The position numbers and the translations under genes were made by a program. Shown one piece after another: positions 11,286 through 59,362 of a DNA stretch of 64,000 nucleotides. The DNA comes from Candidatus Sericytochromatia bacterium (lineage in GTDB: Bacteria > Cyanobacteriota > Sericytochromatia > S15B-MN24 > UBA4093). The stretch lies in NCBI GenBank assembly GCA_036676495.1, contig JAKFCT010000038.1:1-64000 (forward strand), read 5' to 3'. The notes under the pieces are model-generated. The model did no database searches and had not been told where the DNA came from. It saw nothing but the letters and a program-made list of their open reading frames with translations. The number at the start of each line of letters is the position of its first letter. The stretch's first letter is position 1.

Positions 11286-11804
11286 ATGCGCTTGCTCGGC
11301 ATCGACCCAGGGACCGCCACCGTCGGCTACGGCGTCATCGACGTCGACGGGGACTACCACTCCACCATGGTCGCCTTCGGAGTCATCAAAACCCCGCCCC
11401 ACATGCCCATGGCCGAGCGCCTGCGCATCATCTACGACGATGCCCGCGAGCTGCTGGCCCTCTACAAGCCCGGCGTCGTCGTCATCGAAAAACTCTTCGC
11501 CTTTCGCAACGTCACCAACGTCATCACCGTGGCCCAGGCCCGCGGCGTCCTGACCCTGGCGGCGCATCAGGCGGGCTGCAAGCTCGCCGAGTACACCCCA
11601 ATGCAGGTCAAGCAAACCATCACCGGCTACGGCCGCGCCCAGAAGCTCGAAATCCAGGAGATGGTCCGCGACATGCTCGACCTCCCCTCCATCCCCCGCC
11701 CCGACGACGCCGCCGACGCCCTCGCCTTCGCCCTCACCCACGTCCAGTTCCTGCAAGGCGGCGGCGCGCCCGACGAGGACGATCTCTCCCCGGAGCTCGC
11801 ATGA
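11286..11804 (+). CDS. ruvC: Holliday junction resolvase RuvC
   Basis: LLGIDPG..VGYG, EYTPMQVKQTITGYGRA, PDDAADALA. Confidence 0.96.
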   Translation: MRLLGIDPGTATVGYGVIDVDGDYHSTMVAFGVIKTPPHMPMAERLRIIYDDARELLALYKPGVVVIEKLFAFRNVTNVITVAQARGVLTLAAHQAGCKLAEYTPMQVKQTITGYGRAQKLEIQEMVRDMLDLPSIPRPDDAADALAFALTHVQFLQGGGAPDEDDLSPELA

Positions 11805-12406
11805 TCATCTCCCTGAAGGGCACGCTCGCCCACTTCGGAAACGACTACGCCATCCTCGACGTACACGGAGTCGGCTACCAGGTCTTCCTCTCCGCCAGGC
11901 AGCTCCGCGACCTGCCCCCCGAAGGCCAGACCGTCACCCTCTACACCTACCTCGCCCACCGCGAGGACGCCATGCTGCTCTACGGCTTCCCCTCCCTCGA
12001 AGAACGCGAGCTCTTCCTCATGCTCACCTCCGTCTCCGGAGTGGGCACCAAGACCGCGCTGGGGATCCTCTCGGCCATGAGCGCCTCGGACGTGGTCACG
12101 GCGATCGCCACCGCCGACTCCAAGCGCCTCGCCAAGGCTCCCGGCATCGGCAAGAAGACCGCCGAACGCCTGATCCTCGAGCTCAAGGAGAAACTCACCG
12201 CCAAGCGCACTGCCTTCCGCGAAGGCCTCGGCGCCCATGCCCTCCCCGCCTCGGGCCTCAGCACGGAACTGCAGGAGGCCGAGCTCGCCCTGCTCTCCCT
12301 CGGCTACGATCCCGACGAGATTGCCACCGCCCTCGGCCGCATCCCTCCGGGCGCCTCCATCGAAGACGCCATCCGGTCGGCCATCGAACGCCTGAGCGAA
12401 ATCTAA
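11801..12406 (+). CDS. ruvA: Holliday junction branch migration protein RuvA
   Basis: GVGYQV, REDAMLLYGF, VSGVGTKTAL, PGIGKKTAERLILELK; ATGA overlap with ruvC. Confidence 0.96.
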   Translation: MIISLKGTLAHFGNDYAILDVHGVGYQVFLSARQLRDLPPEGQTVTLYTYLAHREDAMLLYGFPSLEERELFLMLTSVSGVGTKTALGILSAMSASDVVTAIATADSKRLAKAPGIGKKTAERLILELKEKLTAKRTAFREGLGAHALPASGLSTELQEAELALLSLGYDPDEIATALGRIPPGASIEDAIRSAIERLSEI

Positions 12407-12510
12407 GCATGTGCTCCCGCGGACCAAGGCCCGCTTGGCTTCTTCGAAGCCGCTTCCTATGCCGCTCGGCAGCGGCAAGGAAGCCTTATTTAGCGGGCCA
12501 GGCCGCTTAG

Positions 12511-14475
12511 CTACGCCGCGGACGGCGGCTCCACCCGGCATGCCGCCGGGACGCCGCGGGGCAGCCGGAACCAGAACGTGCTGCCCTTGCCCGGCTCGCT
12601 GCGCACCCCGATCTGTCCCCCATGGGCCTCGACTTGCGCCTTGCTGATGCTGAGTCCCAAGCCCGTTCCCGCCTTCATCCGGCTTCCGGCCTCCAATTGC
12701 GAGAAGCGCTTGAAGAGCTTGGGGACATCCTCCGGCGCGATCCCGATCCCGGTGTCGCTGACCTCGCAGAGCACGCCGTCCCCATCCTCCTTCAGCCGAA
12801 CCTCCACATGCCCCCCTTCGGGCGTGAACTTGAGGGAGTTGCCGATCAAGTTGGAGACCACCCGCTCGATGCGCTGCGGATCCAGCACCTGCATCACCGG
12901 GGCTTCCGGCATGGAGGCGTGAAGGTCCAGGTGGCGCTCCTCCGCCTGGGGGCGAAGGCTGTCGACGAGCTCCCGGATCCGCCCGGCCAGGTCCGTCTCC
13001 TCGCAGTGCAGCCGGAACGTGCCGGCGTCCAGGCGCGCGACGTCCAGGAGATCGTTGACCATGCCCTCCAGCCGCTTGGAGCTCTTCGTGATCTGATCGA
13101 CGAAGTCATGCTGCGTCGGAGTGAGCGGGCCCCCGAGCTCGTCCTCCAGGAACTCCGCGTAGCCCAGGATCGAGGTCAGGGGAGTGCGCAGGTCATGGGA
13201 GACGGCGTTGACGAAATCGCCCTTGAGCTTGTCGAGTTCCTTGAGTTTCTCGAACTGCTCGCGCAAGGTGGCCTCGAGACGTTTCCGCACGGTGATGTCG
13301 CGCGAGATCACCATGACCCCGATCAAGCTCCCGTCAGAGGCGTAGTAAGGGTACTTGGAGCTGTCGTAGACCCGATCCTCACCTCCCGGAGTGCGAACTT
13401 CGATCTCGTAACTCTGCGGGGCCTCCGAGGCGAGGACGGCCTGGTCGTTCTCCATGATCCGGCGCGCCGTGTCTGCCTCGAAGATCTCGACATCCCGCCG
13501 GCCGAGGATCTCCGGGACCGGCCGCCCCGCCATGCGTGCGAAGGCCGGGTTCGCCAGGAGGTAGCGCCCCTCGCGGTCCCGGATCATGATGAGGTCCGGC
13601 GAGGTCTCGATGAGGGTTCGCAGCGTGGCCTCGCGCTTGCTCAAGGAGGCCTCGACCTGCTCCAGCACTCCGGAGTGCCACCAGAGCAGGGAGGCGGTGA
13701 CGACGACCATGCTCGTCACCATGAACCCGGTCACGAGGGGGGGATCGATTCCCCATGCCCGTCGCGCCCAGAGGCCCATCAGCCCCAGCAAGACCGGAGT
13801 GAGCAAAACCACGGGAAGCAGGCTCCTCAGAATCCGCCCGCCCAGACCCTCGCTGGAGAGCAAGGCCATGAACCCCCGTTCAGGGCGGGCTGCCAGCAGG
13901 CCCGAGGCCAGGATCAGGAACGCCAGGGCCGTGCTCAGGGCCATGGGATGGACCCCCGGCCCCAGGCGGGTGAAGGTGGCCACCTCGAAGAGGTAGCCGA
14001 CGAGCGGAAAGAAGGCGAGAATGGCGGCGCCCAGTGCGAGGACCTGCGACATCCGCTGAAGGCCGGGCGATCGGGCGCCCAGGGCGTACATGCTGGCGCC
14101 GAGCAGTAGCAAGCCCAGGGCCGTATTGGGCGCCACGGGGCCCAGCGGCTCGCTCGCAAGCACGAGCGGCGTGCCCCAGAACCCTCCGCCGAGCACGAGC
14201 CCGCCGATCACGACGGCCGCGACGACGGCCGCCCGCGCGGCGCGGAGGGCCCGCGGCGGAGGGGGATCCGCGCCTTGGAGCCCGAGCGCTCCCCCCAGCA
14301 GCAGGATGGCGACGGCGACCAGCGGATGCATCGCGTCCGCGGGCATGGAGCCGCCGCGTCCGGTCAGGACGGGCAGCCAGGTGAGGAGGACCAGGACGGC
14401 GAGCGCCGAGGCCCCGAGGCTCGCCGCACGGGCGTAGCGGCGAAGATACCGCAGCAGCTGCGGATGGCGTCGCAT
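12511..14475 (-). CDS. Multi-TM PAS-domain sensor histidine kinase (HisKA + HATPase)
   Basis: About 7 TM segments, PAS ([13 protein letters not shown]...ISRDIT), [28 protein letters not shown]. Confidence 0.92.
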
Positions 14476-14610
14476 GAACCCCCGCCCCCTCCCGTTCGAC
14501 TCCTCCTGCCCACGCCGGCACCGATCGGCCGAGACGCGCCGATCCGGCGCCCTCCACCGGCAATTTACCGAAGTCGGGATCGGATCGCCAGGGAAGGCTC
14601 CCTGATGGGG

Positions 14611-15801
14611 CTAGAGTCCCAATTCGGAGACGATCTGCCCGGGATCCTCGGCCACGCGGCGGCGGTAGCACATGCGCTGCAGGATCTGGGGAAGGTCGCG
14701 GATCGGCTTGCCTTGCCGCAAGAGTTCGGCCAGGACCGCGTGGATCTCGCTGAGATCGTAGGATTCCCGGGCCAGCCGGACCACCGCCGGAGCCCGCAGC
14801 GAGACCTTTTCGAGCAGCAGGTCGACCTCGTCGTAGCTGAGGATCTGATGGGCATGGTCCTGGGCCACCGCCCGCAGGTGCTGGAGGATGACCGACTGGG
14901 GCAGAAGGAGCAAGCAGCCCATGGCGGCCGCCTGGGGCGCCATGTCCTCGGGGACCCAGACGGCAGCCCGCCCGCTGAGGGGTTCCTGGGCCGCCAGGGC
15001 CCGGGCGTCGCGGCTCAGCTCCGCAGGCGGATCGAGCGCGAGCACGTAGCCGATGGCCAGGTGCCCACCCGCCACGGGGATACCGCGCACCAGGATCCGG
15101 TACTCGCCGGCCCCCAGGTTGAGGTTGTCGCGGAACTGGACCCCCGGCAGGACGAAGCCGGTCTCCATGGCCAATTCGACCCGCATCTGGACGACCTGAT
15201 CCATGAGGTAGCCGCCCGCGGTGGGCTCCACCAGGGTCACGACGTCGATGCCGAACTCCACCGCCACCGGGGCCAGCCCCAAGAGATCGAAGACGTTCTC
15301 GGGGTTGCGCAGGGCGGGATCGATCGCGCCGACCTCCTCGCCGTGGGCGCGCGGCTCGGGTTCGGCGAAGATCATCGGGATCGGCAAGCGCGGGGCCAAG
15401 GTCTTCGGGATCTGAGCGACCAGGCCTCCGAGACGGCGCAGGCGGCCCATGTCGCCGGGCGGCAGGCCCGGGGGAGCTCCCTTGCGGCGGTAGGCGGCCT
15501 CGGCGAGCTGCTTCAGCTGATCGAACTGGTGAAGGGCCGCATTGGCGTCGAAGCGCAGGCGATCGTCGTTGGCCAAAGCCGCCACGATCCGCTCCACTTC
15601 CTCCGGACATTCCGGCAGCATCCCGCTGGCGTTCGCCTGAGCGAGGAGGCCCTCGGCATGGCGCAGGACCTCCATGCCCGGGGTGACGGTCTGGATCAGG
15701 GTCTCGACGTAGCGAAGGGCCTCGGCGTCGTCCTTGAGGACTTCGAGCTCTCCTTCCGCCGATCCTTTGCCCTCGATCACCGTGAACCGCTCGCGCGCCA
15801 T
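14611..15801 (-). CDS. Soluble FHIPEP/FlhA cytoplasmic-domain paralog with unrelated N-terminal domain
   Basis: [18 protein letters not shown]...[24 protein letters not shown]...AVWV...VILQHL..V...AHQIL...IRDLPQIL aligns with FlhA at 27385-29478; no TM region. Confidence 0.85.
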
Positions 15802-15908
15802 GCTTCACCCCCTCTGAATCGGTTGCCGGGTCCACTATACCCCAACGAGCGAGCGGCCATTCAGGGGGGGACGGCCGCGGGCGGGGCGGTCCCGGATGGA
15901 ACAGTCGT

Positions 15909-15937
15909 TCGACCCCGGGGCGTTCGGATGGTACAAT
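15909..15937 (+). promoter_or_regulatory. sigma70-type promoter of ruvB
   Basis: TCGACC-N17-TACAAT. Confidence 0.45.
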
Positions 15938-15975
15938 GGCCCTGGAGATCCGCCCCGTTCCAGAGGAGACGTCCC

Positions 15976-17040
15976 TTGGCCATCGTTCCGTCCACGCCCG
16001 AGCCGCGGGAAGTGCTCTCGCCGGCGCAGAGCCCGGCAGAGTCCCAGCTCGAAGCCAGCCTCCGCCCGCAATCGCTGGAGGACTACACCGGGCAAGAAGC
16101 CCTCAAGGACGGCCTGAAGATCGCCATCGAGGCCGCCCGGCACCGCCAGGAGCCGCTCGATCATGTGCTCTTCTACGGGCCCCCGGGCCTGGGGAAAACC
16201 ACGCTGGCCGGGATCCTCGCCCATGAGATGGGCTCCCAGCTGCGGATCACCTCGGCGCCCGCCCTGGAGCGGCCGCGCGATCTGGCCGGCTTGCTCGTCG
16301 CCCTCAAGCCGGGCGACATCCTCTTCATCGACGAGATCCACCGCCTCAACCGGCTGGCCGAGGAGATCCTCTATCCCGCCATGGAGGACTGCGCGCTCGA
16401 CATCACCATCGGCAAGGGGCAGACCGCGCGGATCAAGCGCCTTCCCTTGAAGCGCTTCACGCTGGTGGGGGCCACCACGCGGGCCGGAAGCCTCTCGGCT
16501 CCCTTGCGCGATCGCTTCGGCCTGATTCAACGCCTCGAATTCTACCGGCCGCATGAGCTGGCGAGCATCCTGGTGCGCGCGGCGGGGATCCTGAAGGTCG
16601 ACCTCAGCCCGGAAGGCGCCGAGGCGATCGCCAAGCGCTCCCGCGGCACCCCCCGCATCGCCAACCGCCTCCTCAAGCGCGTCCGCGACTTCGCCCAGGT
16701 GCGCGCCAACGGGCAAGTGACCGCCGAAGTGGCGGAAGAGGCGCTCGGCCAGCTTCACATCGACGCCCTCGGGCTGGACCCCACCGACCGCCGGCTGCTG
16801 GAACTCGTGATCACCCAGTTCGACGGGGGACCGGTCGGGATCGAAACCCTGGCCACCGCGCTTTCCGAGGACGTCTCCACCCTCGAGGACGTGGTCGAAC
16901 CCTACCTCCTGCAGGCGGGCCTGTGGCGCCGTACCCCGCGCGGGCGCACGGTCACGCCCCAAGCCTACCGACATCTCGGCCTGACGCCGCCTCAGCAATC
17001 CCTCGCGCTGCCGCTGAGCATGCTGAACGAAAGCAACTGA
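15976..17040 (+). CDS. ruvB: Holliday junction helicase RuvB
   Basis: [41 protein letters not shown]; start set at TTG 15976 after GAGGAG. Confidence 0.96.
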
Positions 17041-26718: not shown

Positions 26719-27372
26719 TCAGCGCACCCGATGCTTCAAGCGAATGACCTCTTCCCGGTGCTTGTTGAAGACGAACTTCACCAGGCGATCGCGATCGCGC
26801 TCGGCGATCGGATAGAACTCCACCGCCACGTGCCAGCGCCCGCTCTGGCGGCGCTCGGCGGGCGTCGCCCGCACGATCCGGCCCGTGATCTCCATGAGGC
26901 CGTAGGTCTCCATGGAGAGATGCACCCGGATGACCGTGCCCGCAGGGAACTCCTCGTTGAGCAGCAGCAGGCACCCCCCGCCGGAGAGATCCTGAAGGAG
27001 CCCCTGGCGCAGGCGGGTGAACTTGCCGTCTCGGGCGACCTGATAATCCATGGGCATGGTCATCGCCACCCGGAGGTGCTCACGGCGCTGGATCCGCTGG
27101 ATCTGTTCCGGTTCGGGGAAGCCGAGGTCGATCCGCATGGAGATGGTGGCCTGCACGGGGCAGTCCAGCGTCCAGATGGCGTTGCCGCGCGGGAAGGTGA
27201 CCCTGAGGTGCTTGCCGACGGGAATCGGCTTGCCGTCCTGCATGGGACGGAAAAGGGCAAAGCCCTTGGGGCCGACCTCGAGGATCCGGCTCGAGAGTCG
27301 CGCCGTAGCATCGCCCGACTCCAAGAGGATGTCGACAATCTGGCCGGGGTTGAGTTCAGGCGTCACGACCAC
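26719..27372 (-). CDS. YcgR/PilZ c-di-GMP-binding flagellar brake protein
   Basis: QRREHLR (RxxxR) and DLSGGG (DxSxxG). Confidence 0.9.
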   Translation of the reverse strand: MVVTPELNPGQIVDILLESGDATARLSSRILEVGPKGFALFRPMQDGKPIPVGKHLRVTFPRGNAIWTLDCPVQATISMRIDLGFPEPEQIQRIQRREHLRVAMTMPMDYQVARDGKFTRLRQGLLQDLSGGGCLLLLNEEFPAGTVIRVHLSMETYGLMEITGRIVRATPAERRQSGRWHVAVEFYPIAERDRDRLVKFVFNKHREEVIRLKHRVR

Positions 27373-27384
27373 TTCCCCCCATGC

Positions 27385-29478
27385 CTAGAGCGTGATGACG
27401 CCCAGGGAGCGCACGTCCAACGAAGGTGGAATCACCTCATTGTAGGCCATGACCGTCAAGTTGGGTAGTTTACGCTCGATCAGGCGCCTGAATACCAGGC
27501 GGACCTTGGAGGAGCACAGAACCACCGGCTGGTGCCCCTGTGCCATGAGGCGCTCGACGACTTCAGCGGCGTTGCGAACCAGCTTGCCCGCCGCTCCGGG
27601 CTCCAGGGCGACGAAGGCGCCCTGCTCGGTGTGTTGGATGGCGTTGCCGAGGATCATCTCGAGGTTGGGGTCGAGCGTGATGACCGGCAACGAGCCGTCC
27701 GGAGCGAGCACGGACTTGCAGATGGATCGCGCCAGCGCCTGGCGCGTGTGCTCGGTCAGCGTGTCGAGATCCTTGGTGAGGCGCGCATGGGTCGCGAGCG
27801 CCTCCATGACGGGCAGCAGGTCGCGGATGGAGACCCGCTCGGCCAGGAGGTTCTGCAGCACCCGCTGCACGTCTCCGATGCCGAGGAGATCCGGGACGAG
27901 TTCGCTCACGACCGCCGGCGACTCTTCCTTGAGGTTGTCCAGCAAGGCCTGGGTGTCCTGACGGGTGAGGATGTCGGGGGCATGCGCCTTGATCACCTCG
28001 GTGAGGTGCGTGGCGATGACCGAGGAGACGTCGAAGACGGTGTAGCCCGCCATCTCCGCGCGCTCCTTCTGATCCTCGGTGATCCAGACGGCAGGCAAAC
28101 CGAAGACCGGCTCGGTGGTGGGGATTCCCTCGATCTCCTCGATGGCCATGCCCACGTTCATCGCCATGTAGTGCTCGATGTGGACCTCTCCGCGCGCGAT
28201 CTCGACCCCGCGCAGGTTGATCCGGTACTCCTTGGGCTTCAGCTGCAGGTTGTCGCGGACGCGGATCGGCGGCAGGACCAGGCCCAGCTTGAGCGCCGTC
28301 TGGCGGCGGATCATGGTGACCCGCTCCAGGAGGTCTCCGCCCTGGGAGGCGTCGACGAGGGGGATCAGGCGGTAGCCGATCTCCAGCTCCATCGGGTCGA
28401 CCTTCAAGAGGCTCATGACGTTCTCGGGGCCCTTGGGAGTGGTATCCGGCGTCCCGGCAGCCGACTGCGCCGCCGCCGCGGCCCTCGTAGCCGCCTCCTT
28501 CTGGGTGCGCTGGAGCACGAAGGCCAGGGCCCCGACTCCGCATCCCACGATCATGAAGGGGAGGGTCGGGAGGCCCGGGATCACCGAGAGCCCCACCAGC
28601 ATGGCCGAGGCGATCATGAGGGGCTTGGGGTTGGAGATGACCTGCTTGGAGATGGCGGAGCCGAGGTTGTCGTCGGAGGCCGCCCGGCTGACCATGATGC
28701 CGGTGCCGGTCGAGATCAGCAGCGCCGGGATCTGGGTGACCAGGCCGTCGCCGATGGTGAGGAGCGTGTAGGTCGTCAGCGCCTGCGAGATCTCGATGCC
28801 GCGCTGGAAGACTCCGATCAGGATGCCCGCGACGATGTTGATGGCCGTGATGATCAGGCCCGCCACCGCGTCGCCCTTCACGAACTTCGAGGCGCCGTCC
28901 ATGGTGCCGTAGAAGTCCGACTCGCGCTGGATCTTCTTGCGCCGCTCCTTGGCCTGCTCCTCGTTGATGAGACCGGCGTTGAGGTCGGCGTCGATCGCCA
29001 TCTGCTTACCGGGCATGGCGTCCAGGGTGAAGCGGGCGGCGACCTCGGAGATGCGGCCCGCGCCGTTGGTGATGACCATGAACTGGATCACGATCAGGAT
29101 CAGGAAGATGATGACGCCGACCACGTAGTTGCCCTGAACCACGAAGTTGCCGAAGGCCTCGACGACGTGCCCCGCATCTCCCTCGCTGAGGATGAGGCGG
29201 GTGGTCGAGACGTTGAGCGCCAATCGGAACAGCGTCAGGATCAGCAGCAGCGACGGGAAGGTGTTGAACTCCACCGGCTCCATGACGTAGAGGGTGATGA
29301 GCAGCATCAGCAGCGAGCCCGTGATGTTGACCACCAGGAGCACGTCCAGCAGGCCCGCCGGGATGGGGATGATGAGCATCAGCACCACCGCCACCATCAT
29401 GACGGCGAGCACCATGTCGCTCTGCTTGAGGAGGCGGGTCAGCGCGGATTCGGCCTGGGGCACGGTCTGGGTTGCCAA
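27385..29478 (-). CDS. flhA: Flagellar export gate protein FlhA
   Basis: RISEVAARFTLDAMPGKQMAIDADL, FYGTMDGASKFVKGD, GYRLIPLVD. Confidence 0.97.
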   Translation of the reverse strand: MATQTVPQAESALTRLLKQSDMVLAVMMVAVVLMLIIPIPAGLLDVLLVVNITGSLLMLLITLYVMEPVEFNTFPSLLLILTLFRLALNVSTTRLILSEGDAGHVVEAFGNFVVQGNYVVGVIIFLILIVIQFMVITNGAGRISEVAARFTLDAMPGKQMAIDADLNAGLINEEQAKERRKKIQRESDFYGTMDGASKFVKGDAVAGLIITAINIVAGILIGVFQRGIEISQALTTYTLLTIGDGLVTQIPALLISTGTGIMVSRAASDDNLGSAISKQVISNPKPLMIASAMLVGLSVIPGLPTLPFMIVGCGVGALAFVLQRTQKEAATRAAAAAQSAAGTPDTTPKGPENVMSLLKVDPMELEIGYRLIPLVDASQGGDLLERVTMIRRQTALKLGLVLPPIRVRDNLQLKPKEYRINLRGVEIARGEVHIEHYMAMNVGMAIEEIEGIPTTEPVFGLPAVWITEDQKERAEMAGYTVFDVSSVIATHLTEVIKAHAPDILTRQDTQALLDNLKEESPAVVSELVPDLLGIGDVQRVLQNLLAERVSIRDLLPVMEALATHARLTKDLDTLTEHTRQALARSICKSVLAPDGSLPVITLDPNLEMILGNAIQHTEQGAFVALEPGAAGKLVRNAAEVVERLMAQGHQPVVLCSSKVRLVFRRLIERKLPNLTVMAYNEVIPPSLDVRSLGVITL

Positions 29479-37605: not shown

Positions 37606-37821
37606 CTAGTCCCTTCCCCCGTCGGTCACGTTCCGGACTCCCGGATGGCAGCGCCGCCGGTAAGCCTCGATTCGCTCGAGAAGCTCGTCGATCGACTCCT
37701 TGACCACGAAGCGATGCTCGTTGGTCAGGGTCACGATGGTATCGGGCCGCTCCTCGATGGTCTCGATCAGATCGGCGTTGAGCACCAACTCCGAACCATT
37801 CAGCCGGGTCACCTTGATCAC
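37606..37821 (-). CDS. flbD: FlbD/SwrD-family flagellar protein
   Basis: MIKVTRLNG..LVLNADLIETIE..PDT. Confidence 0.92.
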   Translation of the reverse strand: MIKVTRLNGSELVLNADLIETIEERPDTIVTLTNEHRFVVKESIDELLERIEAYRRRCHPGVRNVTDGGRD

Positions 37822-38117
37822 GGTTTGCCCCCCTTGTCCTTTGCCGCGCCGCGGGCGCTGTCCACCCGCCGGACCCAGACCAGGACCTCGGCCACCACCG
37901 GGTACAACTCGGCGGGAATCTGCTCTCCCAGGTCCAGCGCCGCCAGCGCCGAGACCAGGCCCGGATTCTCCTGGATCGCGACGCCGGCCTCGCGGGCCGT
38001 CTCCACGATCCGCTCCGCGACCCGGCCGGAACCCTTGGCGACGACCTCCGGGGCCTCGTCCGCTCCGTCGTCGTAGCGAAGGGCGACCGCCTTCTTCGGA
38101 GGCTTCGCGTCACTCAT
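37818..38117 (-). CDS. FlhB C-terminal-only paralog (FlhX/YlqH-like)
   Basis: AVALRYD..APEVVAKG, IPAELYPVVAEVL; no TM, no NPTH; ATGA overlap with upstream gene. Confidence 0.9.
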   Translation of the reverse strand: MSDAKPPKKAVALRYDDGADEAPEVVAKGSGRVAERIVETAREAGVAIQENPGLVSALAALDLGEQIPAELYPVVAEVLVWVRRVDSARGAAKDKGGKP

Positions 38118-39700
38118 AGCCATACATCCACCTGGCGCAGGGCGTCGATCGACGCAGCCGGCGCCTTGGGCTGGACATGCTTGACCCCGAGGGCGTTCAC
38201 ATGAAGGCCCGTCGCCTCCAAGGCCTCCTGCAACTCCGGCAAGTGCTGGCGAAGCGCCTCGGCGATCGCCTGATCTTCAACGGCGACCTGACAGTTTAGC
38301 TGCTTTCGTCCCAAAAGTAAATCGACCCGGACGCGCTGTAGATGAGTGGTATCCAGGGTCACGACCACCCGCGTCTCCTCCGGATTGCCACCCTTGCGCC
38401 CCTTCCCTTCCTTGGCCTGGTACTGGACCCGGATCTCCCCGGATCCGCCGTTCCACCAGAGGGGCATCGCCACGGAGCGATCCGCCGCGGCATGCTGGGG
38501 ATCGATCGCAGCCGCGTTCACCACTTGCCCGAAGCGGACCTCGGCCAGCGCCTCGCGTATCGGCTCTCCGCCGTCCCCGCTGCGGACCGCCCGCTCCAGA
38601 ACCGCGGTCAGCGCCTCCTGGATCTTCACGAGCGGCTCGGCAAGAGGCCGGCCTGCTACCGCGGAGCGTGCCGCTTCCGCCTGAGGCGCCGCCCCTTGCC
38701 GGGGGGAGGCTTCCGGGCGTTCCGCCGGGGCTTTCGGGGTCTCGGCCCTTGGGGTCTCGGCCCTCTGGGTCTCGGCCTTTTGGGTCTCGGCCAGCGAGGC
38801 GGCGTTGCCGGCCTCCGGGAGCGTCACAGCGGGCTTGAGCGCGGCGGCCTCCGGCGCGAGCAAGGCCCGCGCGATCCGAGCCTCCGGCGGAGTGAAGGCT
38901 CTGGCGAGCTTGAGCAGATGCTCCGCGGTCTCGGCGGCATCCCCTTCCGGCAAGGCCAGATCCATGAGGGCTTGAGCGGCGGGAGTGGACGGTTCGGGGA
39001 TCCGGCGGGCGATCGCCGCCAGCCGCTCCCCCGGCGTCGAATTCGCTTGCATGCGACCCGAGACCCAGTCGACCGCCTCCTCCGTGACCGGAAGCCCCTT
39101 GGACACCAGAAACGCCGCCGCCTCCATGACCTTGACCGGCACGGGCAGCTTGGCCGCCGACGCGGCCGCCGGTGTCGCCGCGGGCGTGGCAGAGCGCGAG
39201 CCCGCCGGATCGGTCTCTTGCGATCGCGCCGCGAGGCGGTTCAGGGCATCGCCAAGCTGCGTCATCGCCTCCCGGCTCACGGTCCCCGCATGGCGCAGCA
39301 GCGCCCGCGCCATGGCCTGGTGCTTGGGATCTGTCGGCAAGCTCATTTCTTGCAACTGAGCCGCCAGGCGCTCGGGCTTCAGGGGAGCGGCCGGTTCGTG
39401 GCGAATCTCGGCGATCCTCAAGCGCAGCGGGTCGCTGCTGCCCTCGGGCCGGGGCTCGACCACGGCCGTGAAGACGTCTCCGGCCCGCAAGGGAGCCTCG
39501 GTGCGGACCTTGGCCGATCCGAGGTCGAGGAAGTCGAGCAGGGCCGTCTGGTTGAGGACCTGAAGGACCCTGGCTTCGACCTTGCCGGCCTGGATGAGGG
39601 CCTTGAGCAAATCCCCCTCGATCTTCCCTGCGCCCCCGGTGGGGAGGGCGACGACGGTGCCCGGTGTCGGGACCCGCAGGTTGGGATCGAGGGGGATCAT
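38114..39700 (-). CDS. Second FliK-like (YlqG-like) protein
   Basis: C-terminal VVVTLDTTHLQRVRVDL...LRQHLPELQEALEATGL and terminal VDVWL; paired with FlhX-like gene. Confidence 0.7.
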   Translation of the reverse strand: MIPLDPNLRVPTPGTVVALPTGGAGKIEGDLLKALIQAGKVEARVLQVLNQTALLDFLDLGSAKVRTEAPLRAGDVFTAVVEPRPEGSSDPLRLRIAEIRHEPAAPLKPERLAAQLQEMSLPTDPKHQAMARALLRHAGTVSREAMTQLGDALNRLAARSQETDPAGSRSATPAATPAAASAAKLPVPVKVMEAAAFLVSKGLPVTEEAVDWVSGRMQANSTPGERLAAIARRIPEPSTPAAQALMDLALPEGDAAETAEHLLKLARAFTPPEARIARALLAPEAAALKPAVTLPEAGNAASLAETQKAETQRAETPRAETPKAPAERPEASPRQGAAPQAEAARSAVAGRPLAEPLVKIQEALTAVLERAVRSGDGGEPIREALAEVRFGQVVNAAAIDPQHAAADRSVAMPLWWNGGSGEIRVQYQAKEGKGRKGGNPEETRVVVTLDTTHLQRVRVDLLLGRKQLNCQVAVEDQAIAEALRQHLPELQEALEATGLHVNALGVKHVQPKAPAASIDALRQVDVWL

Positions 39701-48866: not shown

Positions 48867-50453
48867 CTATTCGTCCTCCAGCATCCAGGAGCGCACGAGA
48901 CGGGCCACCTCGTCGGGCTGGCTCTTGATGACCTTGGAGATCTCGCGCTGGAGGTGGGTCTTGCGGTCCTCTTCGCCGATCTGACCGATTTCCGCCAGGT
49001 CCTGCTTGACGGTCGACTCGAGGGTCAAGGGGGCGAGATCGGGCAGCTCCTCTTCCTGCGGCTTGCCCCGCAGGCCGCGCCGCAAGAGGATCAAGGCCAC
49101 GATGCCCAGGATGAGGGCGGCCGCCACCTTGAGGTAGAACTGGGTCTGCTCCTGCTGCTCCGCCTTGGCGAAGGCCTCTTCCTGGGCCTTGGCCACGGTG
49201 TCGTTGAACTTGAGGGCCGAGACCACGACGGTATCCCCGCGCAGCTCGTTGACGCCGGCCGCCGCGGAGATCATCTGGCGCAGGTCGGCGATTTGCTCCT
49301 CTTCGAGCTCGCCGTTCACGGCCACGGCCACCGAGAGGCGCTTCAGCTCCGCGGGAGGCTTGATCTTGCGCTGGACCGACTTGTTGACCTCGTAGTTGCG
49401 GGTGTGGTCGAGCTTCTCGTAGGCGCCAGGTCCCGCGGCCGTCGAGGAAGAGGCCTCGTAGGTCGGGATGTTGGTGGCGGTGCCGGGCACGCCTCCGCTC
49501 TGGCCCTGGGTGCCGTCCCAGCGCTCATGGAACTCCCGCTCGGAGCGCAGGATGCCCGAACGCGTCCCGTCCGCGGCGGTGACGACCGGCTCGAAGGTCT
49601 CCTGGTTGGTCTCGAGCTGGCTGAAGTCCATCTCGGCCACCACGTTGACCACCGCGCCGTTGGGGCCGAGGACCCGGTCGAGCATGCCCTGGAGGTTCTT
49701 GCGGATGCCCAGCTCGGTCTGGCGCTTCAGCTCCAGCTGCTTGAGGCTCTGCTCGGGAGAAAGGGGATTGTCCTGGCCGAGGGCCAGCTCGTCGGAGTAG
49801 TTGCGGCCGTTGACGTCGGTGATGACGACGTTGGAGGGCGTGAGGCCCTTCACGGACTTGGAGACCAGGTGAACGATGGTCTTGGCCTGCTCGGGGGAGA
49901 ACTTCGAGGTGGGGTAGAGCTTGAGGACGACGGCGGCGGTCGGGCTCTCGGCGGTATCCGTGAAGAGGTCGGGCTCGGGAATCACGAGGTGGACCCGCGC
50001 CTGCTCGACGCCGTCCATGGTGGAGATGGTGCGCGACAGTTCGCCCTGCAGGGCCCGCTGGTAGTTGAGCTTCTGGACGGCCTCGGTCATGCCGAAGGTG
50101 TTCTTGTCGAAGATCTCGAAGCCCACCTCGCCGCCAAGCGGCAGGCCCTGGGCCGCCATCTGGAGCCGCAGCTCGTGCACCTGGCTGCGGGGGACCATGA
50201 TGGACTTGCCGCCCGCGGCGATCTCGTAGGGGACCTGGGCGTCCTTGAGCTTCTGGACGATCTGGCCCGCGTCGGCCTCGGTGACGTTGGTGTAAAGCGG
50301 AGCCCACTCGGGGGAGCGCGCCCAGACGAGCAGCAGCACGATGGCCGCGATGGACACCGCGGACACCGCCCCGAAGAGGATTTGTTGGGTTCGGCTCAAG
50401 CCGGACCAAATCCGGCCGATATCAGATTGTAGCTGGCGCAGGAACTCGTTCAT
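48867..50453 (-). CDS. fliF: MS-ring protein FliF
   Basis: GFEIFD..FGMT, RALQGELSRTI, ARVHLVIP, RLSVAVAVNG. Confidence 0.96.
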   Translation of the reverse strand: MNEFLRQLQSDIGRIWSGLSRTQQILFGAVSAVSIAAIVLLLVWARSPEWAPLYTNVTEADAGQIVQKLKDAQVPYEIAAGGKSIMVPRSQVHELRLQMAAQGLPLGGEVGFEIFDKNTFGMTEAVQKLNYQRALQGELSRTISTMDGVEQARVHLVIPEPDLFTDTAESPTAAVVLKLYPTSKFSPEQAKTIVHLVSKSVKGLTPSNVVITDVNGRNYSDELALGQDNPLSPEQSLKQLELKRQTELGIRKNLQGMLDRVLGPNGAVVNVVAEMDFSQLETNQETFEPVVTAADGTRSGILRSEREFHERWDGTQGQSGGVPGTATNIPTYEASSSTAAGPGAYEKLDHTRNYEVNKSVQRKIKPPAELKRLSVAVAVNGELEEEQIADLRQMISAAAGVNELRGDTVVVSALKFNDTVAKAQEEAFAKAEQQEQTQFYLKVAAALILGIVALILLRRGLRGKPQEEELPDLAPLTLESTVKQDLAEIGQIGEEDRKTHLQREISKVIKSQPDEVARLVRSWMLEDE

Positions 50454-50755
50454 CGAACCCTTATCACAGTACCGTCATCCCCGAGACCGCCCTCATGGAT
50501 TCTCCTGAGCAAGCCGTCCTTGGCTGCTGTAGCCGGTTGTCGCCGGCGGACCGCCGGAGGGCCGCGTCGTGATGCCCCCGGGGAGCCCTTCCTTCCGGCC
50601 AACCCCTCACGCTCTCTTCACCTTGGAAGCATAACACGGTTTGGGGCACGGCCAAAGCCTAGCTTAGCACAACGAAAGGAACCTCCGCTCCTATTAATGA
50701 GCGGATATTCGTCCGCTCTTGCTCGGGAAACGAGCTTGAAGCGCGGCCGCAGCGG

Positions 50756-51253
50756 CTATACCTGCATCCTCATGACTTCTTGGTAGGATTCCACCAATTT
50801 ATTTCGAATCTGCATGGTGAGGTTCACCGCCACCGAGGCCTTCTCGGCGGCGATCATCACGTCGTGAAGCTCCACGTCCTTGCCCATGGCCAGATCGCGC
50901 TGCTTGGAGTCGGAGGTCTGGGCGAGCTGGTTGACAGAGCCCAGGTAATTGCCGATCGACTCGAAGACCGGCTCGATGCCGAGCCCCGTACGGGCGGCCC
51001 GCGGACCCATCACGCTCTCGGCTTGCGTACCGGCGTCCGGACCCAGTCTGGGGGCTGCCAGGCTCTGGGCGGGAGGCACGATCGCCGAGGGCTGGCCGCT
51101 CGGAGCGAGCGGCACGGTGGCCGCCGGGCCTTGCGCCTCGGAGCGCGAGTCGAAGATCGCCCCGAAGTCCGGGCGCGGGATCCCGGGAAGGGGGATGCCG
51201 GGAACGCCGGGAAGCGGGGCGCCCATGGGGCCGATGGGGGGCAGAAAGGGCAT
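50756..51253 (-). CDS. fliE: FliE with long Pro-rich N-terminal extension
   Basis: C-terminal LHDVMIAAEKAS..QIRNKLVESYQEVMRMQV. Confidence 0.9.
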   Translation of the reverse strand: MPFLPPIGPMGAPLPGVPGIPLPGIPRPDFGAIFDSRSEAQGPAATVPLAPSGQPSAIVPPAQSLAAPRLGPDAGTQAESVMGPRAARTGLGIEPVFESIGNYLGSVNQLAQTSDSKQRDLAMGKDVELHDVMIAAEKASVAVNLTMQIRNKLVESYQEVMRMQV

Positions 51254-51254
51254 G

Positions 51255-51662
51255 TTAGATCTCCAGGGCCTTGTTGGCGGCGGCCTTCAGCGACTGAATG
51301 ACGGTGACGTTCGCCTCGTAGGAGCGGGTGGCCGAGATCATGTCGGTCATCTCCGTGACGGGGTTGACGTTGGGATAGGCCACGTAGCCCTCCGCGTTGG
51401 CGTCCGGGTGCGCGGGATCGTGGACCAGGCGGAAGGGAGACTCGTCCTCGATCACTCCCGAGACGCGGACTCCGTGGGTCGGGATTCCGGTCGGGCGCTC
51501 GGAGGGGCGCGACTCGAAGACCACCATCTCGCGGCGGTAGGCCTCCCCCTTGTCGGTCCGGGTGGTATTGGCGTTCGCCAGGTTGGAGGAGATCACGTCC
51601 ATGCGCAGGCGCTGGGCGGTGAGCGCCGAGGCGGCGGTATTGAGCGCGTCGAAAAGTCCCAT
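51255..51662 (-). CDS. flgC: Basal-body rod protein FlgC
   Basis: AQRLRMDVISSNLANANTTR, DPAHPDA..GYV.YPNVN, RSYEAN. Confidence 0.96.
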   Translation of the reverse strand: MGLFDALNTAASALTAQRLRMDVISSNLANANTTRTDKGEAYRREMVVFESRPSERPTGIPTHGVRVSGVIEDESPFRLVHDPAHPDANAEGYVAYPNVNPVTEMTDMISATRSYEANVTVIQSLKAAANKALEI

Positions 51663-51686
51663 CGTCTACTCCCTGCCAAAAAGCGG

Positions 51687-52097
51687 CTATGAGCCGCGGA
51701 TCACGTCCTTGAGGCCCGTCATCTTCCGCTTCATCAGATCGGCGACGGCGCTGTAGGTGAGGCTGGTCTGCGCGAGGCGCGTCATCTCGACGTCGATGTC
51801 CACGTTGTTGCCGTCGTTGCGCAGCGTGGAGTCCTCGGCACGGCGCAGCTCGGGGCGGAACTGCGAAAGCCCCTGGGGGCCGAGGCTGAGGTGGCCGGCA
51901 TGGGTCAAGGCCAGCGGAGCCCCGCGCCCGCCTTCGACCGCCGCTTGAAGCTGGGCCTCGTAGGAGACCTCGAAGCGTTTGTAGTGAGGGGTGTCGGCGT
52001 TGGCGACGTTTTCGGCGAGAGCGCGCTGACGCTGACCGAGGCCGGTCAAGCCGGCATGGAGCACGTCGGTGGTTCCACCGAAAAGCTTGTCCAGCAC
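51687..52097 (-). CDS. flgB: Basal-body rod protein FlgB
   Basis: NVANADTPHYK, DGNNVDIDVEM. Confidence 0.95.
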   Translation of the reverse strand: MLDKLFGGTTDVLHAGLTGLGQRQRALAENVANADTPHYKRFEVSYEAQLQAAVEGGRGAPLALTHAGHLSLGPQGLSQFRPELRRAEDSTLRNDGNNVDIDVEMTRLAQTSLTYSAVADLMKRKMTGLKDVIRGS

Positions 52098-52135
52098 GCG
52101 TTCTCTCCTCCTGAAAAGCCCCGCGGGGGCCGCCT

Positions 52136-52193
52136 CACTATACCCCTGACGGGGCGCTTCTAATCGTTATCGGCGCAGCCGGCCGGATCTGAA
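52136..52193 (-). promoter_or_regulatory. Two candidate promoters for flgB operon
   Basis: TTCA-N15-GCCGATAA (52193-52167, sigma28-like) and GGGGTATAGTG (52146-52136). Confidence 0.55.
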
Positions 52194-52879
52194 GGGCTGG
52201 CAGTCGTCCCTTCTTCGCGCGAGCGTGCGATCTCGAGGACCCGCTCGACCACTTGTTCGCGCGTCAGCGTGTCCGTGTCGACGCGAACGGCGTCCGGTGC
52301 TTCCTTCAGGGGGCTCACCGCGCGGTTGGAGTCGTAGGCGTCCCGGCGGGCGATCTCGTCGGCGAGCTCGGGCAAGTCGACCGCGTGACCCTTGGCCTCC
52401 AGGTCCTTGGCCCGGCGGCGCGCCCTCTCCATGGGGGAAGCGACGAGGAAGATCTTGACCGGGGCCTGGGGGAAGACCACGGTGCCGATGTCACGGCCCT
52501 CGGCGACCACTCCGCCGTCCTTGCCGAGTTCGCGCTGGCGGTCGACCAGGACCTCCCGGACGCCGGGATGAGCGGAGACCTGGGAGACGTTCCGGGTGAC
52601 CTGGGGGTCGCGGATGGCCTCGGTGACGTCCTGGCCGTCGATGAGGACGCGGTCCCCGGTTTCCGAGGGAAGCAGGACGATCTCGGCTTCGCGCGCGAGG
52701 CGGGTCAAGGCGTCGGCGTCGTCGAGGGGGAGGCCCTCCTGCATGGCCTTCCAGGTGACGGCGCGGTACATGGCTCCGGTGTCGAGGAAGAGGAGGCCGA
52801 GGCGGCGGGCGACCGCCTTGGCGACGGTGCTCTTGCCGGCCCCGGCGGGGCCGTCGATGGCGACGATGAGGCGGCTCAC
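52160..52879 (-). CDS. cmk: Cytidylate kinase
   Basis: AIDGPAGAGKST, LDTGAMYRA, AEGRDIGTVVFP; GTG start overlapping panC stop. Confidence 0.95.
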   Translation of the reverse strand: MSRLIVAIDGPAGAGKSTVAKAVARRLGLLFLDTGAMYRAVTWKAMQEGLPLDDADALTRLAREAEIVLLPSETGDRVLIDGQDVTEAIRDPQVTRNVSQVSAHPGVREVLVDRQRELGKDGGVVAEGRDIGTVVFPQAPVKIFLVASPMERARRRAKDLEAKGHAVDLPELADEIARRDAYDSNRAVSPLKEAPDAVRVDTDTLTREQVVERVLEIARSREEGTTASPSDPAGCADND

Positions 52880-53760
52880 AGGGAAGCTCCTTCCAAGAGG
52901 CTGGCGAGTCCTCGGTCCGGCGAGTCCGGGGCGAGGAGGGCATTGTCGATGAGGCGGGTCTTGCCCAGCTTGGCGGCGATCGCCATGACGGCGGGGGCCG
53001 CGAGGGCGGAGACGGGGTGGAGGGTGTCGGCGTCGCGCAGGTCGAGGTACTCGAGTGCGAGTCCGGAGAGCTCCGGGCGGGCGGCGGCCAGCAGGCGATC
53101 GGCCGAGCGTTCTCCCGCCAGGTAGGCGCGCATGGCCTGAGCGAGGGCGCGGGAGAGGGCGCGGGCGCGGAGGCGCTCGTCGGGGGCGAGGTAGGCGTTG
53201 CGCGAGCTCAAGGCGAGGCCGTCGGGCTCGCGGACGATGGGGACGCGGACGACTTCGACGGGCAGGGCGAGGTCCGAGACCATCTGGGCGATCACGCGCC
53301 ACTGCTGGAAGTCCTTCTGGCCGAAGAAGGCGGCGTCGGGGCGAACGAGGCCGAAGAGGCGGGCGACGACGGTGGTGACGCCGGCGAAGTGGCCGGGCCG
53401 GGATTGGCCGCAGAGGGGGTCGGTGAGGCCCGCGACCGAGACTTCGGTGCGGAAGCCGGGGGGGTAGACGACCTCGGGCGTGGGGGTGAAGAGCAGGTCG
53501 ACGCCTTCCTGTTCGCAGAGGGCCTGGTCGCGCGCGAGGTCGCGGGGGTAGCGATCGAGGTCTTCGTTGGGGCCGAACTGCTTGGGGTTGACGAAGATCG
53601 AGACGACGACGCGGTCCGAGGCGTGTCGGGCGCGTCGGATGAGGCTGGCGTGACCCTCGTGGAGGAAGCCCATGGTGGGGACGAAGCCGACGCGGGCGTC
53701 GCCTTGGCGGAGGCGAGCTAGGGAATCGCGGAGCTCGGCATGGGAGGAGACCCGGATCAC
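52876..53760 (-). CDS. panC: Pantoate-beta-alanine ligase
   Basis: VPTMGFLHEGH, SIFVNPKQF, RPGHFAGV, FGQKDFQQ, LSSRN, RLIDN; GTG 53760 after AAGGAG. Confidence 0.96.
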   Translation of the reverse strand: MIRVSSHAELRDSLARLRQGDARVGFVPTMGFLHEGHASLIRRARHASDRVVVSIFVNPKQFGPNEDLDRYPRDLARDQALCEQEGVDLLFTPTPEVVYPPGFRTEVSVAGLTDPLCGQSRPGHFAGVTTVVARLFGLVRPDAAFFGQKDFQQWRVIAQMVSDLALPVEVVRVPIVREPDGLALSSRNAYLAPDERLRARALSRALAQAMRAYLAGERSADRLLAAARPELSGLALEYLDLRDADTLHPVSALAAPAVMAIAAKLGKTRLIDNALLAPDSPDRGLASLLEGASL

Positions 53761-54092
53761 AGGAGCGCTCCTTTCGGTCGGAATCAGGCGCAGGGCGGGC
53801 CATACGCGCGGGATCCATTCTAGCACAGCGGCGACCGTGGGTCGCGCGGCGGCTCATGAACCTTGTCGATCGGGGCCATGCCGATGCCGGGGGGTCCGGG
53901 TAGGATCGGGGGGCATGGGGTTCGATCACTCCAGCGTCAACGCCATCAATGGGGATGGAACCTGGCTCCGGATGACGCCACGCAAGGGCCGAGCGCCCAT
54001 TTTTCCCCGGAGAGGCCGGGGGAGCGCCGAACCGGGCCCGTCGGGTTCGACGGGTTCGCCGAGGTGTTCCGAGCGTAAGGAGCGACGCCGCG

Positions 54093-54626
54093 ATGAGACC
54101 CTTGGACTTCGATCTACTGGGTTGTCCCGTGACCGATGTGGAGACTGGCGAGGTGGTCGGGCGGGTCAAGGTGGTGGTGCAGTCCCCGACGCCGGGTCGG
54201 ATTGCGCAGCTGGCGTTGGAGCGGCTGACGGATGGCTGGGCGCGGGAGGCCATGGGGGCGACTCCGGTGATGGGCGAGCCGCTTTACGATGGGCGCGGGG
54301 CGCTGTTGGGGTGGGCGGTCGGGATGGCCGAGAGCCTGCCGGGCGGGGGGATGAGGCGGCTGGGGGAGGCCGGGTCCTTCGCGGGCGGGACGCGGTTCCT
54401 GCTGGTGCGGGAGCAAGCGGAGGGGGAGGGAGCCGTGATCGACGGTCACGATCTTGGCGAGGGCGACTCCGCCCATGGAGACTACATGGTCGGCCAGACG
54501 GCGGCATGCACCCTGATCGATCCGCAGGGCCAGACCGTGATCCGCCAAGGCGAGGTGATCACGGCGGACGTGCTGGAGCGGGCGCGTCGGCTGGGGCTGC
54601 TGCACCGGCTGGAAGCGACCTTCTAA
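54093..54626 (+). CDS. PRC-barrel-like protein
   Basis: LLGCPVTDVETGEVVGRV; C-terminal GEVITADVLERARRLGLL; AAGGAG RBS. Confidence 0.6.
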   Translation: MRPLDFDLLGCPVTDVETGEVVGRVKVVVQSPTPGRIAQLALERLTDGWAREAMGATPVMGEPLYDGRGALLGWAVGMAESLPGGGMRRLGEAGSFAGGTRFLLVREQAEGEGAVIDGHDLGEGDSAHGDYMVGQTAACTLIDPQGQTVIRQGEVITADVLERARRLGLLHRLEATF

Positions 54627-54630
54627 GCGA

Positions 54631-54654
54631 AAGGGGCGCCCGTGGGCGCCCCTT
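54631..54654. terminator. Bidirectional terminator-like hairpin
   Basis: aaggggcgccc-gt-gggcgcccctt between convergent stops. Confidence 0.65.
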
Positions 54655-54658
54655 CGAG

Positions 54659-56092: not shown

Positions 56093-56303
56093 GCATGTCT
56101 CCTCTATCGTTGGGGAAGCGTTCAGTCAAGCAATATCCTAACGTTAAACCCGCTTATGAAGCAACCCACCGAAGCCCCCTGTCCGTTTCGCCGAAGGCAG
56201 GCGAGGCTTTCCGCCGTAGACTCTTGCTCGTCACCCACGGCTTGCTGGCCCGGCGCGCATGCGAGCGGGAAGCAGCCCTTCGACGGGCAGGGGAGGGACG
56301 GCC

Positions 56304-57059
56304 ATGCGCGGGACCTGGGGGCTGGGCATTGCCTTGGGCATCGTCCTGGCGCTACAACTGCCGGCTTGGGGCACGCTCGGAATGCGTGCGAGCGAGCTCG
56401 AGCTCCGCTACGCCTGGGAGGCGGGCCCGGAGGGGACCCGGCTCTACCAGCTGGGTTCGGCGATCTTCAGCCCGATCCTCTCGGAGGGACGGATGGTGGG
56501 GGCGATCGCCGAGCTTCCCGCCGACGCCGGCAAGGCCGGCATCATGGCCCTGCTCGCGGCGATGACCCCCGGCTTGCGCCAGGAGCCCGCCGTCGAGCGA
56601 GGCAGCCTCGACGCCGACACCTGGAAACGCGTGACCCCCGACTACCTGGCCATGGCGATGCACGAAAACGGCAAGCTCTTCGTGCTCGTCCAGCAGCTCG
56701 AACCCCAGGACGAGCCCCGGGGGGGCGAGCTCGAACCGCCCCCCGAAGCCACGGTCGAGGACCCGTACTACCGGGCGCAAAACGACCTCGACATCCTCCG
56801 CATGGCCCTCGAATCCTACCGGGCCCGCCATTACTTCCGCTACCCCGAGGTCCGTAACGTCGACGAGCTGATCCGGGCGTTGAAGCGCGCGGAGGTCCTT
56901 CCCGAGGAGTTCCAGCTCCAGGCGCCGCTCACCGAGTTCGGCGTCTGGCGAACCGGCTACCGGATCACCGTGCGGGCGGGCGGACGTCCCCTCACGATCC
57001 GAGAGCCGGAGCGCTACGATCCCTTCTGGGTCTTCTGGCAGATCCGACCCTTCCCTTAG
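56304..57059 (+). CDS. Secreted hypothetical protein with pseudopilin-like helix
   Basis: GGAGGG RBS, signal peptide; AQNDLDILRMALESY...YP motif. Confidence 0.6.
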   Translation: MRGTWGLGIALGIVLALQLPAWGTLGMRASELELRYAWEAGPEGTRLYQLGSAIFSPILSEGRMVGAIAELPADAGKAGIMALLAAMTPGLRQEPAVERGSLDADTWKRVTPDYLAMAMHENGKLFVLVQQLEPQDEPRGGELEPPPEATVEDPYYRAQNDLDILRMALESYRARHYFRYPEVRNVDELIRALKRAEVLPEEFQLQAPLTEFGVWRTGYRITVRAGGRPLTIREPERYDPFWVFWQIRPFP

Positions 57060-57137
57060 TGAGTCGCGTAGTTTCTCCCCTGCCTCCATGGCGGATGAAG
57101 ACCTACCATGGGCTCGCTCGTCTGAGGGAGGTTTGGC

Positions 57138-58542: not shown

Positions 58543-58553
58543 GCTAGCCCCTC

Positions 58554-59240: not shown

Positions 59241-59262
59241 CCTCAGACCCTCCTTCGATTCA

Positions 59263-59293: not shown

Positions 59294-59306
59294 GCTACCC
59301 TATCGT

Positions 59307-59339: not shown

Positions 59340-59362
59340 GCGATGGCTGAGAAGGGAGGTGG

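Follow-up and report, generated by a model that had tools for sequence, protein, structure and literature searches.

FlhA is the central and best-studied component of the flagellar export gate, and its cytoplasmic ring selects substrates and couples their selection to proton-driven export. A cytoplasmic domain of a gate protein that is encoded on its own has been described for FlhB: FlhX of Helicobacter pylori (HP1575) is a stand-alone homologue of the FlhB C-terminal domain and partly substitutes for FlhB, according to bioRxiv 10.1101/2021.08.29.457346. For FlhA, the literature searches, judged by titles and the first lines of abstracts, returned no description of a stand-alone cytoplasmic domain, and none of the 23 papers listed (of 25) that contain the term FHIPEP, the name of the Pfam family PF00771, is about such a protein by its title or abstract start. 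Here we describe a gene of this kind from a Candidatus Sericytochromatia bacterium (assembly GCA_036676495.1). It lies in the first 64,000 nucleotides of contig JAKFCT010000038.1 (the window), as an open reading frame (ORF) at 14611-15801 on the minus strand, which starts with ATG and encodes a protein of 396 amino acids (aa) that is related to the cytoplasmic domain of FlhA (FlhAc) and has no membrane part.

The cytoplasmic part of FlhA consists of a linker and the domains D1 to D4. In the Salmonella FlhAc ring, the linker residues E351, W354 and D356 contact R388, R391, K392 and K393 in D1 of the neighbouring subunit, and the same linker residues contact a pocket of D1 and D3 residues there; mutations in the C-terminal part of the linker or in R391-K393 inhibit ring formation. 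The docking site of chaperone-substrate complexes is a dimple between D1 and D2 that includes D456, F459 and T490, and D4 comprises residues 584-682 (all from PMC5916509). With the FlhAc structures of Salmonella (3A5I) and Bacillus subtilis (3MIX), the 396-aa protein shares the fold of the C-terminal part of the linker and of D1-D3. It differs from FlhA in that the eight-helix membrane domain, the N-terminal part of the linker and D4 are absent, while an unrelated bundle of 146 aa is added; the dimple carries E, S and Q instead of D, F and T, and the gene is located outside the flagellar operons. By analogy, FlhX is the closest described counterpart in logic, as in both cases the cytoplasmic domain of an export-gate membrane protein is encoded alone. 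However, the parent of FlhX is FlhB and the parent of the 396-aa protein is FlhA, so the two are analogous and not homologous; in Pfam, the protein matched only FHIPEP and not Bac_export_2, the family of the FlhB C-terminal domain. Moreover, FlhX lies with flagellar genes, whereas the gene described here does not, and its product carries an extra domain. The cytoplasmic domains of the SctV proteins (YscV, MxiA, InvA and SsaV) belong to the same superfamily and have the same fold (Z 13.2-16.5), but their sequence relationship is much looser (in NCBIfam, E 6.9e-15 for hrcV and E 1.9e-41 for FlhA), and the window showed no injectisome genes. The fold and the family are already known, while the membrane-less architecture without D4 and with its own N-terminal domain, like the radiation to which it belongs, is uncharacterised.

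The Pfam search assigned FHIPEP to residues 163-391, which match positions 317-545 of the 657 of the profile (E 7.4e-43; 147.4 bits, cut-off 29.1) and set the limits of the domain. The NCBIfam FlhA equivalog model TIGR01398 was matched over positions 332-560 of 678 (142.1 bits, E 1.9e-41) and its cut-off of 772.1 bits was not reached. The full-length FlhA of the window (FlhA1; 27385-29478, minus strand, 697 aa, FHIPEP 1-653) is 33% identical to the protein over 230 aa (BLASTP, E 9e-34). This alignment reproduces the strings quoted in the original prediction, which was made from the sequence letters and had aligned residues ~165-396 with FlhA1 by eye from the conserved linker motif PENV onward, and it contains EFGIDV where FlhA has EIGYRL, as predicted. 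In the AlphaFold2 model of the full-length protein (mean predicted local distance difference test, pLDDT, 84.1; predicted template modelling score, pTM, 0.56; 65-row alignment), residues 157-396 superpose on residues 347-580 of Salmonella FlhAc (3a5i) with Z 21.7 and a root-mean-square deviation of 2.1 Å over 231 aligned residues (VIA-align). The FlhAc structures of Vibrio, Helicobacter and Bacillus gave Z 18-21 (3mix, Z 18.1), and the sequence match to B. subtilis 3mix had E 4e-33.

Residues 1-335 of FlhA1 did not match the protein in phmmer, and its sole hydrophobic 19-mer (residues 170-188) sits in the stretch aligned to the end of the FlhA linker and the start of D1; it is therefore, in our view, not a membrane helix. 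The C-terminus corresponds to about Salmonella residue 580, where D4 would begin. No D4 match was found with phmmer, all 13 relatives (query included) stop at 396-400 aa, and the 135 bp before the next gene leave too little space for a D4 lying behind a frameshift. The protein consists of the C-terminal part of the FlhA linker with D1, D2 and D3, and both the membrane part and D4 are absent. The original prediction had claimed a stand-alone paralogue of the FlhA cytoplasmic domain without transmembrane helices and without the last subdomain, and all of this is borne out; the strand, which is minus, had not been stated. The subdomain limits follow those given for Salmonella in PMC5916509, with the numbering transferred through phmmer alignments to solved FlhAc chains (36hw_A2).

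The coding sequence is that of a real gene under purifying selection and not of a decaying duplicate. In a window with an overall G + C content of 66.7%, the G + C contents at its codon positions (GC1 0.776, GC2 0.418, GC3 0.887) are similar to those of clearly real genes of the window, while the long overlapping ORFs in other frames do not have this pattern, and the Shine-Dalgarno-like sequence GAGGGGG precedes the ATG. A search of 5.8 billion proteins returned 17 at E ≤ 0.001, of which 13 (query included) are 396-400 aa long and 83-100% identical at 99-100% query coverage, so orthologues exist; one of them is publicly annotated just as 'Flagellar biosynthesis protein FlhA'. The linker segment L164-L174 is invariant in 13/13 sequences, and conservation among these sequences is equal in the N-terminal domain and in the FlhAc part. 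The ratios of nonsynonymous to synonymous substitution rates (dN/dS, Nei-Gojobori) between the genes of the window and of two related loci (L005 and L006) were 0.108, 0.167 and 0.172 for the whole gene, 0.065-0.18 for the N-terminal domain and 0.14-0.17 for the FlhAc part, values that rest on three sequences only and in which the strong GC3 bias may distort dS. The dS of the three pairs (0.63-0.75) indicates orthologues and not assembly copies of one population. Orthologues and purifying selection, whose absence would have refuted the original prediction, were thus both found. Truncation at both ends relative to FlhA and a long stem branch in the tree described below would suit a decaying partial flhA duplicate without function, but the intact frame, the constant length in 13/13 sequences, the dN/dS of 0.11-0.17, the gene-like GC3, the Shine-Dalgarno-like sequence and the dS make this reading extremely improbable.

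The N-terminal domain is a predicted helical bundle confined to this genus. In the AlphaFold2 model, helices are predicted at residues 25-59, 67-78, 80-105, 115-129 and 131-138, with block-mean pLDDT values of 69-92 for residues 21-140; folded alone from a 3-row alignment, the domain reached pLDDT 50.9. It matched no Pfam family at E ≤ 0.1, NCBIfam gave no match outside the FlhAc part, and the ESM Atlas returned no usable match. Structural matches were restricted to generic or designed helical bundles, the best with Z 8.1 (VIA-align), which lies under the level that the tool regards as meaningful for helical proteins. These results agree with the predicted helical N-terminus unrelated to FlhA. 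In a phmmer search of 1.84 billion representatives, residues 1-71 were covered, among the matches listed, only by the protein's own cluster; five other rows begin at residues 72-110 and the rest at 129 or later. A match that covers the N-terminal domain (residues 1-394 or more) was found in 3/3 genomes of the genus and in 0/38 others of the class.

Two possible sources of the N-terminal domain were considered. A relic of the FlhA membrane domain was rejected, as hhalign gave only a 7-residue match (GLVAQIP/GLVsQIP, P 0.013) and the hidden Markov model (HMM) of the FlhA N-terminal domain scored -2.0 bits, with 17/300 shuffles scoring as high. The N-terminal domain of a group of membrane-less metagenome proteins of 559-635 aa (group A) gave 118 collinear columns in hhalign (P 0.013, 3.4% probability), and scores as high were reached by 1/60 column-shuffled controls and, with the HMM, by 33/500 shuffles. 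This likeness is suggestive at most; the kinship is weak, not significant and not established.

The genome to which the window belongs (4.14 Mb in 106 contigs, 91.9% complete, 6.7% contaminated) contains four FHIPEP loci. Two encode full FlhA proteins and two encode membrane-less ones, which answers the question of the paralogue number raised with the original prediction. FlhA1 lies inside a long single-strand run of flagellar and chemotaxis genes (tblastn self-matches, some Pfam), and FlhA2 (704 aa) is encoded on another contig (C45), directly after a second fliF. The second membrane-less protein, PAR2 (484 aa; G000:C47:3173-4627, minus strand, the same as L004:1510-2964, minus strand), also ends after D3. 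Two further genomes of the genus have at least four FHIPEP matches each, which makes it improbable that these loci stem from contamination. The N-terminal domain of PAR2 (~240 aa, helical) is common to the D4-keeping metagenome proteins of 559-635 aa (BLASTP, E 1e-8 to 4e-13), and its gene is flanked by genes that we read from their sequences as encoding a peptidase-like lipoprotein and an SNF2-type helicase.

The FlhAc part of the 396-aa protein is 43% identical to FlhA2 and 33% identical to each of FlhA1 and PAR2. The original prediction had compared the protein with FlhA1, whereas FlhA2 is more closely related to it. In a tree of 73 FlhAc rows (quick IQ-TREE run, LG+G4, support by the Shimodaira-Hasegawa-like approximate likelihood ratio test, SH-aLRT, only), FlhA2 and all included membrane-less paralogues of Sericytochromatia form one clade of 39 rows with SH-aLRT 95; proteins of the sibling class are not part of this tree. 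The branches of FlhA2 are very short, in contrast to the long stems of all soluble groups (0.72 changes per column for the 396-aa protein). The clade of the 396-aa protein is sister to ~300-aa D1-D3 proteins of sister genera with a support of only 81, and the tree program warned of long-branch joins. We read the gene as probably a duplicate from the FlhA2 lineage that underwent fast change followed by constraint, with the rooting and this sequence of events being tentative.

Two flagellar systems seem to be present in the organism, the second of which is scattered over the genome. ORFs of the cluster on contig C45 (about 49200-60100) match FlgB, FlgC, FlgE, FliF and FliA of the window (tblastn) and are taken as flgF/G, flgB, flgC, fliF and fliA, while putative flgA, flgH, flgI and fliE were assigned there from position and N-terminal sequence reading only. 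Second copies of fliP/Q/R, fliN, flhB, fliI, fliH and motA/B were found on other contigs (C34, C42, C27/C48 and C57; tblastn), and no second fliG or fliM was found in the genome (tblastn, E 1e-6). The flagellar operon of the window also contains, at 37818-38123 on the minus strand, a 101-aa ORF that encodes the C-terminal domain of FlhB and nothing else (Bac_export_2 positions 258-335 of 335, E 1.5e-21; 42% identity to residues 257-353 of the FlhB of the window). It is an FlhX-like copy of that domain, comparable also to B. subtilis YlqH.

Membrane-less FlhAc genes are conserved and multi-copy across the sampled Sericytochromatia genomes. By reading of the match rows, 21/41 genomes of the class have at least one match of this type, defined as an open frame of less than 660 aa, away from contig ends, in which the FlhAc match spans 150 or more query residues; the counts per family are 7/10 genomes in f1, 8/8 in f3, 0/8 in f4, 5/10 in f6, 1/3 in f7, 0/1 in f2 and 0/1 in f5. 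The examples cut out include ~300-aa D1-D3 proteins, 364-405-aa D1-D4 proteins and adjoining partners of 578-584 aa. In a family of the sibling class (f9), FHIPEP matches were found in 51/51 genomes of the phylum-wide sample, with at least two in each genome listed. Each of the four f9 genomes examined has a full FlhA and a frame of ~490-500 aa with the cytoplasmic part of FHIPEP only, from about position 310; for example, L036 1063-2568 (plus strand) encodes 501 aa with FHIPEP 308-653 behind ~150 unrelated residues. A different form of 595 aa with FHIPEP 262-656 is encoded at L035 958-2745 (plus strand) in the same family, whose genomes are small (1.6-2.3 Mb) and have 31-35% G + C at the two loci read. 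Among the best phmmer matches are also metagenome proteins in which FlhAc is fused to other domains (P0147, P0028, P0135, P0019, P0021 and P0087), although some of these may be assembly chimeras; the partners are a MerR helix-turn-helix, a receiver domain, ankyrin repeats with a FliG_N-like tail, HEAT repeats (with two FlhAc copies) and a right-handed beta-helix. Like the 396-aa protein, PAR2, group A, the ~300-aa proteins and the ~500-aa proteins of the sibling class lack the membrane domain, and PAR2 and the ~300-aa proteins likewise lack D4, but their N-terminal domains and gene neighbourhoods differ from those of the 396-aa protein.

The positions of the subdomains and of the genes on both sides are given in Table 1. 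The downstream kinase gene is on the same strand after a gap of 135 bp, ruvA and ruvC converge from the plus strand beyond it, and no terminator-like site was found in 12300-16200, so the two genes are possibly co-transcribed. A minus-strand promoter-like site was not found in this stretch either. The same order of the gene, the kinase, ruvA and ruvC recurs in L005, and the sequence of L006 ends before the kinase position; L005 is too close a relative for this synteny to carry much weight. The ~300-aa D1-D3 paralogues of the sister genera showed no synteny with the gene. Over the stretch 11286-17040, ruvC and ruvA are split from ruvB, all three on the plus strand, by the minus-strand pair.

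Table 1. Positions of the membrane-less FlhAc gene, its protein regions and the adjacent genes in the window.
Feature	Position	Strand	Basis
Whole coding sequence, soluble FlhAc paralogue	14611..15801	-	ORF, translation, GC3, relatives, dN/dS
N-terminal helical bundle (predicted), residues 1-146	15364..15801	-	AlphaFold2 model; no family match
Low-confidence connector, residues 147-160	15322..15363	-	pLDDT <50 at residues 147-158
C-terminal part of FlhA linker and first part of D1, residues 161-250	15052..15321	-	Alignments to FlhA1 and solved FlhAc
D2, residues ~251-300, with dimple positions E273 and S276	14902..15051	-	phmmer to Salmonella FlhAc
Second part of D1, residues ~301-320, with Q307	14842..14901	-	Salmonella numbering
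D3, residues ~321-396	14614..14841	-	VIA-align to 3a5i
Histidine kinase with ~7 hydrophobic segments, then PAS, HisKA and HATPase_c	12511..14475	-	Pfam, hydrophobicity
ruvB (start approximate), divergent from the FlhAc gene	15928..17040	+	Pfam RuvB_N, AAA_lid_4, RuvB_C

Our tentative reading is that the 396-aa protein acts in the cytoplasm as an accessory factor or regulator in flagellar type III export, through FlhA-type contacts, which we hold to be a real possibility somewhat short of an even chance. The gene encodes a soluble protein of two domains, in which a helical bundle found only in the genus is joined to a copy of FlhAc related to FlhA2. The invariant linker segment and D3 may serve as ring-contact elements, either for docking beside the cytoplasmic domains of FlhA2 or for self-association, and the N-terminal bundle would bring in another partner. 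The flagellar setting counts for this reading, with two flagellar gene sets and the ORF of the FlhB C-terminal domain in the operon of the window. The C-terminal part of the linker is kept, and R207 aligns with Salmonella R391. The changed dimple (E273, S276 and Q307 at the positions of D456, F459 and T490) speaks against chaperone docking and gating of the ordinary kind, as does the missing D4. Binding to FlhA2 and a regulatory effect are both inferred, as are the roles suggested in the original prediction, in which the protein could join the FlhA ring as an adaptor or inhibitor or could build a ring of its own. If membrane-less copies dock on the FlhA ring or mimic it, they would provide naturally occurring tools with which ring assembly, chaperone docking and substrate switching could be probed separately, and they may offer a route by which two flagellar systems are kept apart in one bacterium.

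A predicted complex of the protein with FlhA2 residues 335-704 was classed by the tool as 'weak support', with a median-run score of 0.47, while the best of 3 controls scored 0.00. The runs agreed in at least 75% of contacts, and the pLDDT of the partner was at least 75. The mark was reached by 58/80 solved complexes and 2/110 mismatched pairs, but at scores of 0.60 or below by only 7/80 solved complexes and by both passing mismatches, and by the tool's own caveat a score of this kind is wrong more often than it is right unless the guess was likely beforehand.

Several points weigh against a role in flagellar export or limit the support for it. FlhAc rings have already been solved, so the pass at 0.47 may reflect likeness or memory only, and the pTM of 0.56 leaves open the position of the N-terminal domain relative to FlhAc. 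The equivalents of K392 and K393 are V208 and E209; FlhA2, however, appears by eye to have V and N at these positions, so the two residues tell neither way. The loss of the dimple aromatic residue is suggestive but not diagnostic. At the F459 position, 50/62 rows with the membrane domain have F/Y and 9/62 have S/T, and of the rows without the membrane domain but with a long N-terminus, 26/38 have F/Y/W and 12/38 have S/T (5/12 of these from the clade of the 396-aa protein), in a sample that is biased toward relatives of this protein. The gene is outside the flagellar operon, ~5.3 kb from the end of the flagellar and chemotaxis operon (~21057), and the other membrane-less paralogues inspected lie in non-flagellar neighbourhoods (lpx genes, an ATP-binding cassette transporter, a DHH-type gene). 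Finally, a flagellar match was found in 40/41 genomes of the class, so co-occurrence with flagella is uninformative there.

These neighbourhoods suit an alternative that we regard as rather unlikely, in which D1-D3 of FlhAc have been taken over as a general binding or sensing module outside flagellar export, for example as a cytoplasmic partner or scaffold of the PAS kinase. The same-strand kinase gene 135 bp downstream with no terminator-like site between, the retention of the pair in L005, and the metagenome fusions of FlhAc to a MerR helix-turn-helix, a receiver, ankyrin and HEAT repeats and a beta-helix all point in this direction. However, only close relatives of 84-89% identity share the pairing with the kinase, and at such closeness synteny is weak evidence; some of the fusions may be chimeric, P0028 keeps FlhA-like membrane helices, and the invariant linker segment suggests that FlhA-type contacts have been kept. 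Should the protein work outside flagellar biology, the FlhAc fold would have been reused as a general module.

We give a slightly smaller, still modest chance to a homo-oligomeric ring or assembly of the protein's own in the cytoplasm, in which the bundle replaces the membrane anchor and export substrates are held or sorted. Helical bundles often oligomerise, and the N-terminal domain is as constrained as FlhAc. Likewise, the C-terminal part of the linker, D1 and D3, which are the elements that contact the neighbour in Salmonella, are all present; the altered dimple and the missing D4 speak against such a function.

The accessory or regulator reading can be extended to the membrane-less FlhAc proteins as a whole, although we consider this extension improbable. 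They would then be undescribed flagellar regulators of non-photosynthetic Cyanobacteriota, acting as decoy or capping copies that dock on the FlhA2 ring or compete with it and, where an organism has two flagellar gene sets, choose which export gate is served, and the 396-aa protein would be switched on together with the PAS kinase by an environmental signal.

Two further observations concern relatives of FlhA and the flhA1 locus. A conserved tandem pair was found in three genomes (L027 6171-9059, L028 7651-10577 and L030 7905-10805, from G011, G013 and G017, respectively), composed of a 364-370-aa FlhAc protein with D1-D4 and a protein of 578-584 aa whose N-terminus is hydrophobic as in FlhA and which matches FlhAc in part; it is followed by a gene of ~877 aa with a DHH-like start, and the pair looks like a third, rearranged FlhA-like system. 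In the window, a YcgR-like PilZ protein (PilZNR and PilZ) is encoded directly after flhA1 at 26719-27372 on the minus strand, a position that is often held by flhF in other bacteria.

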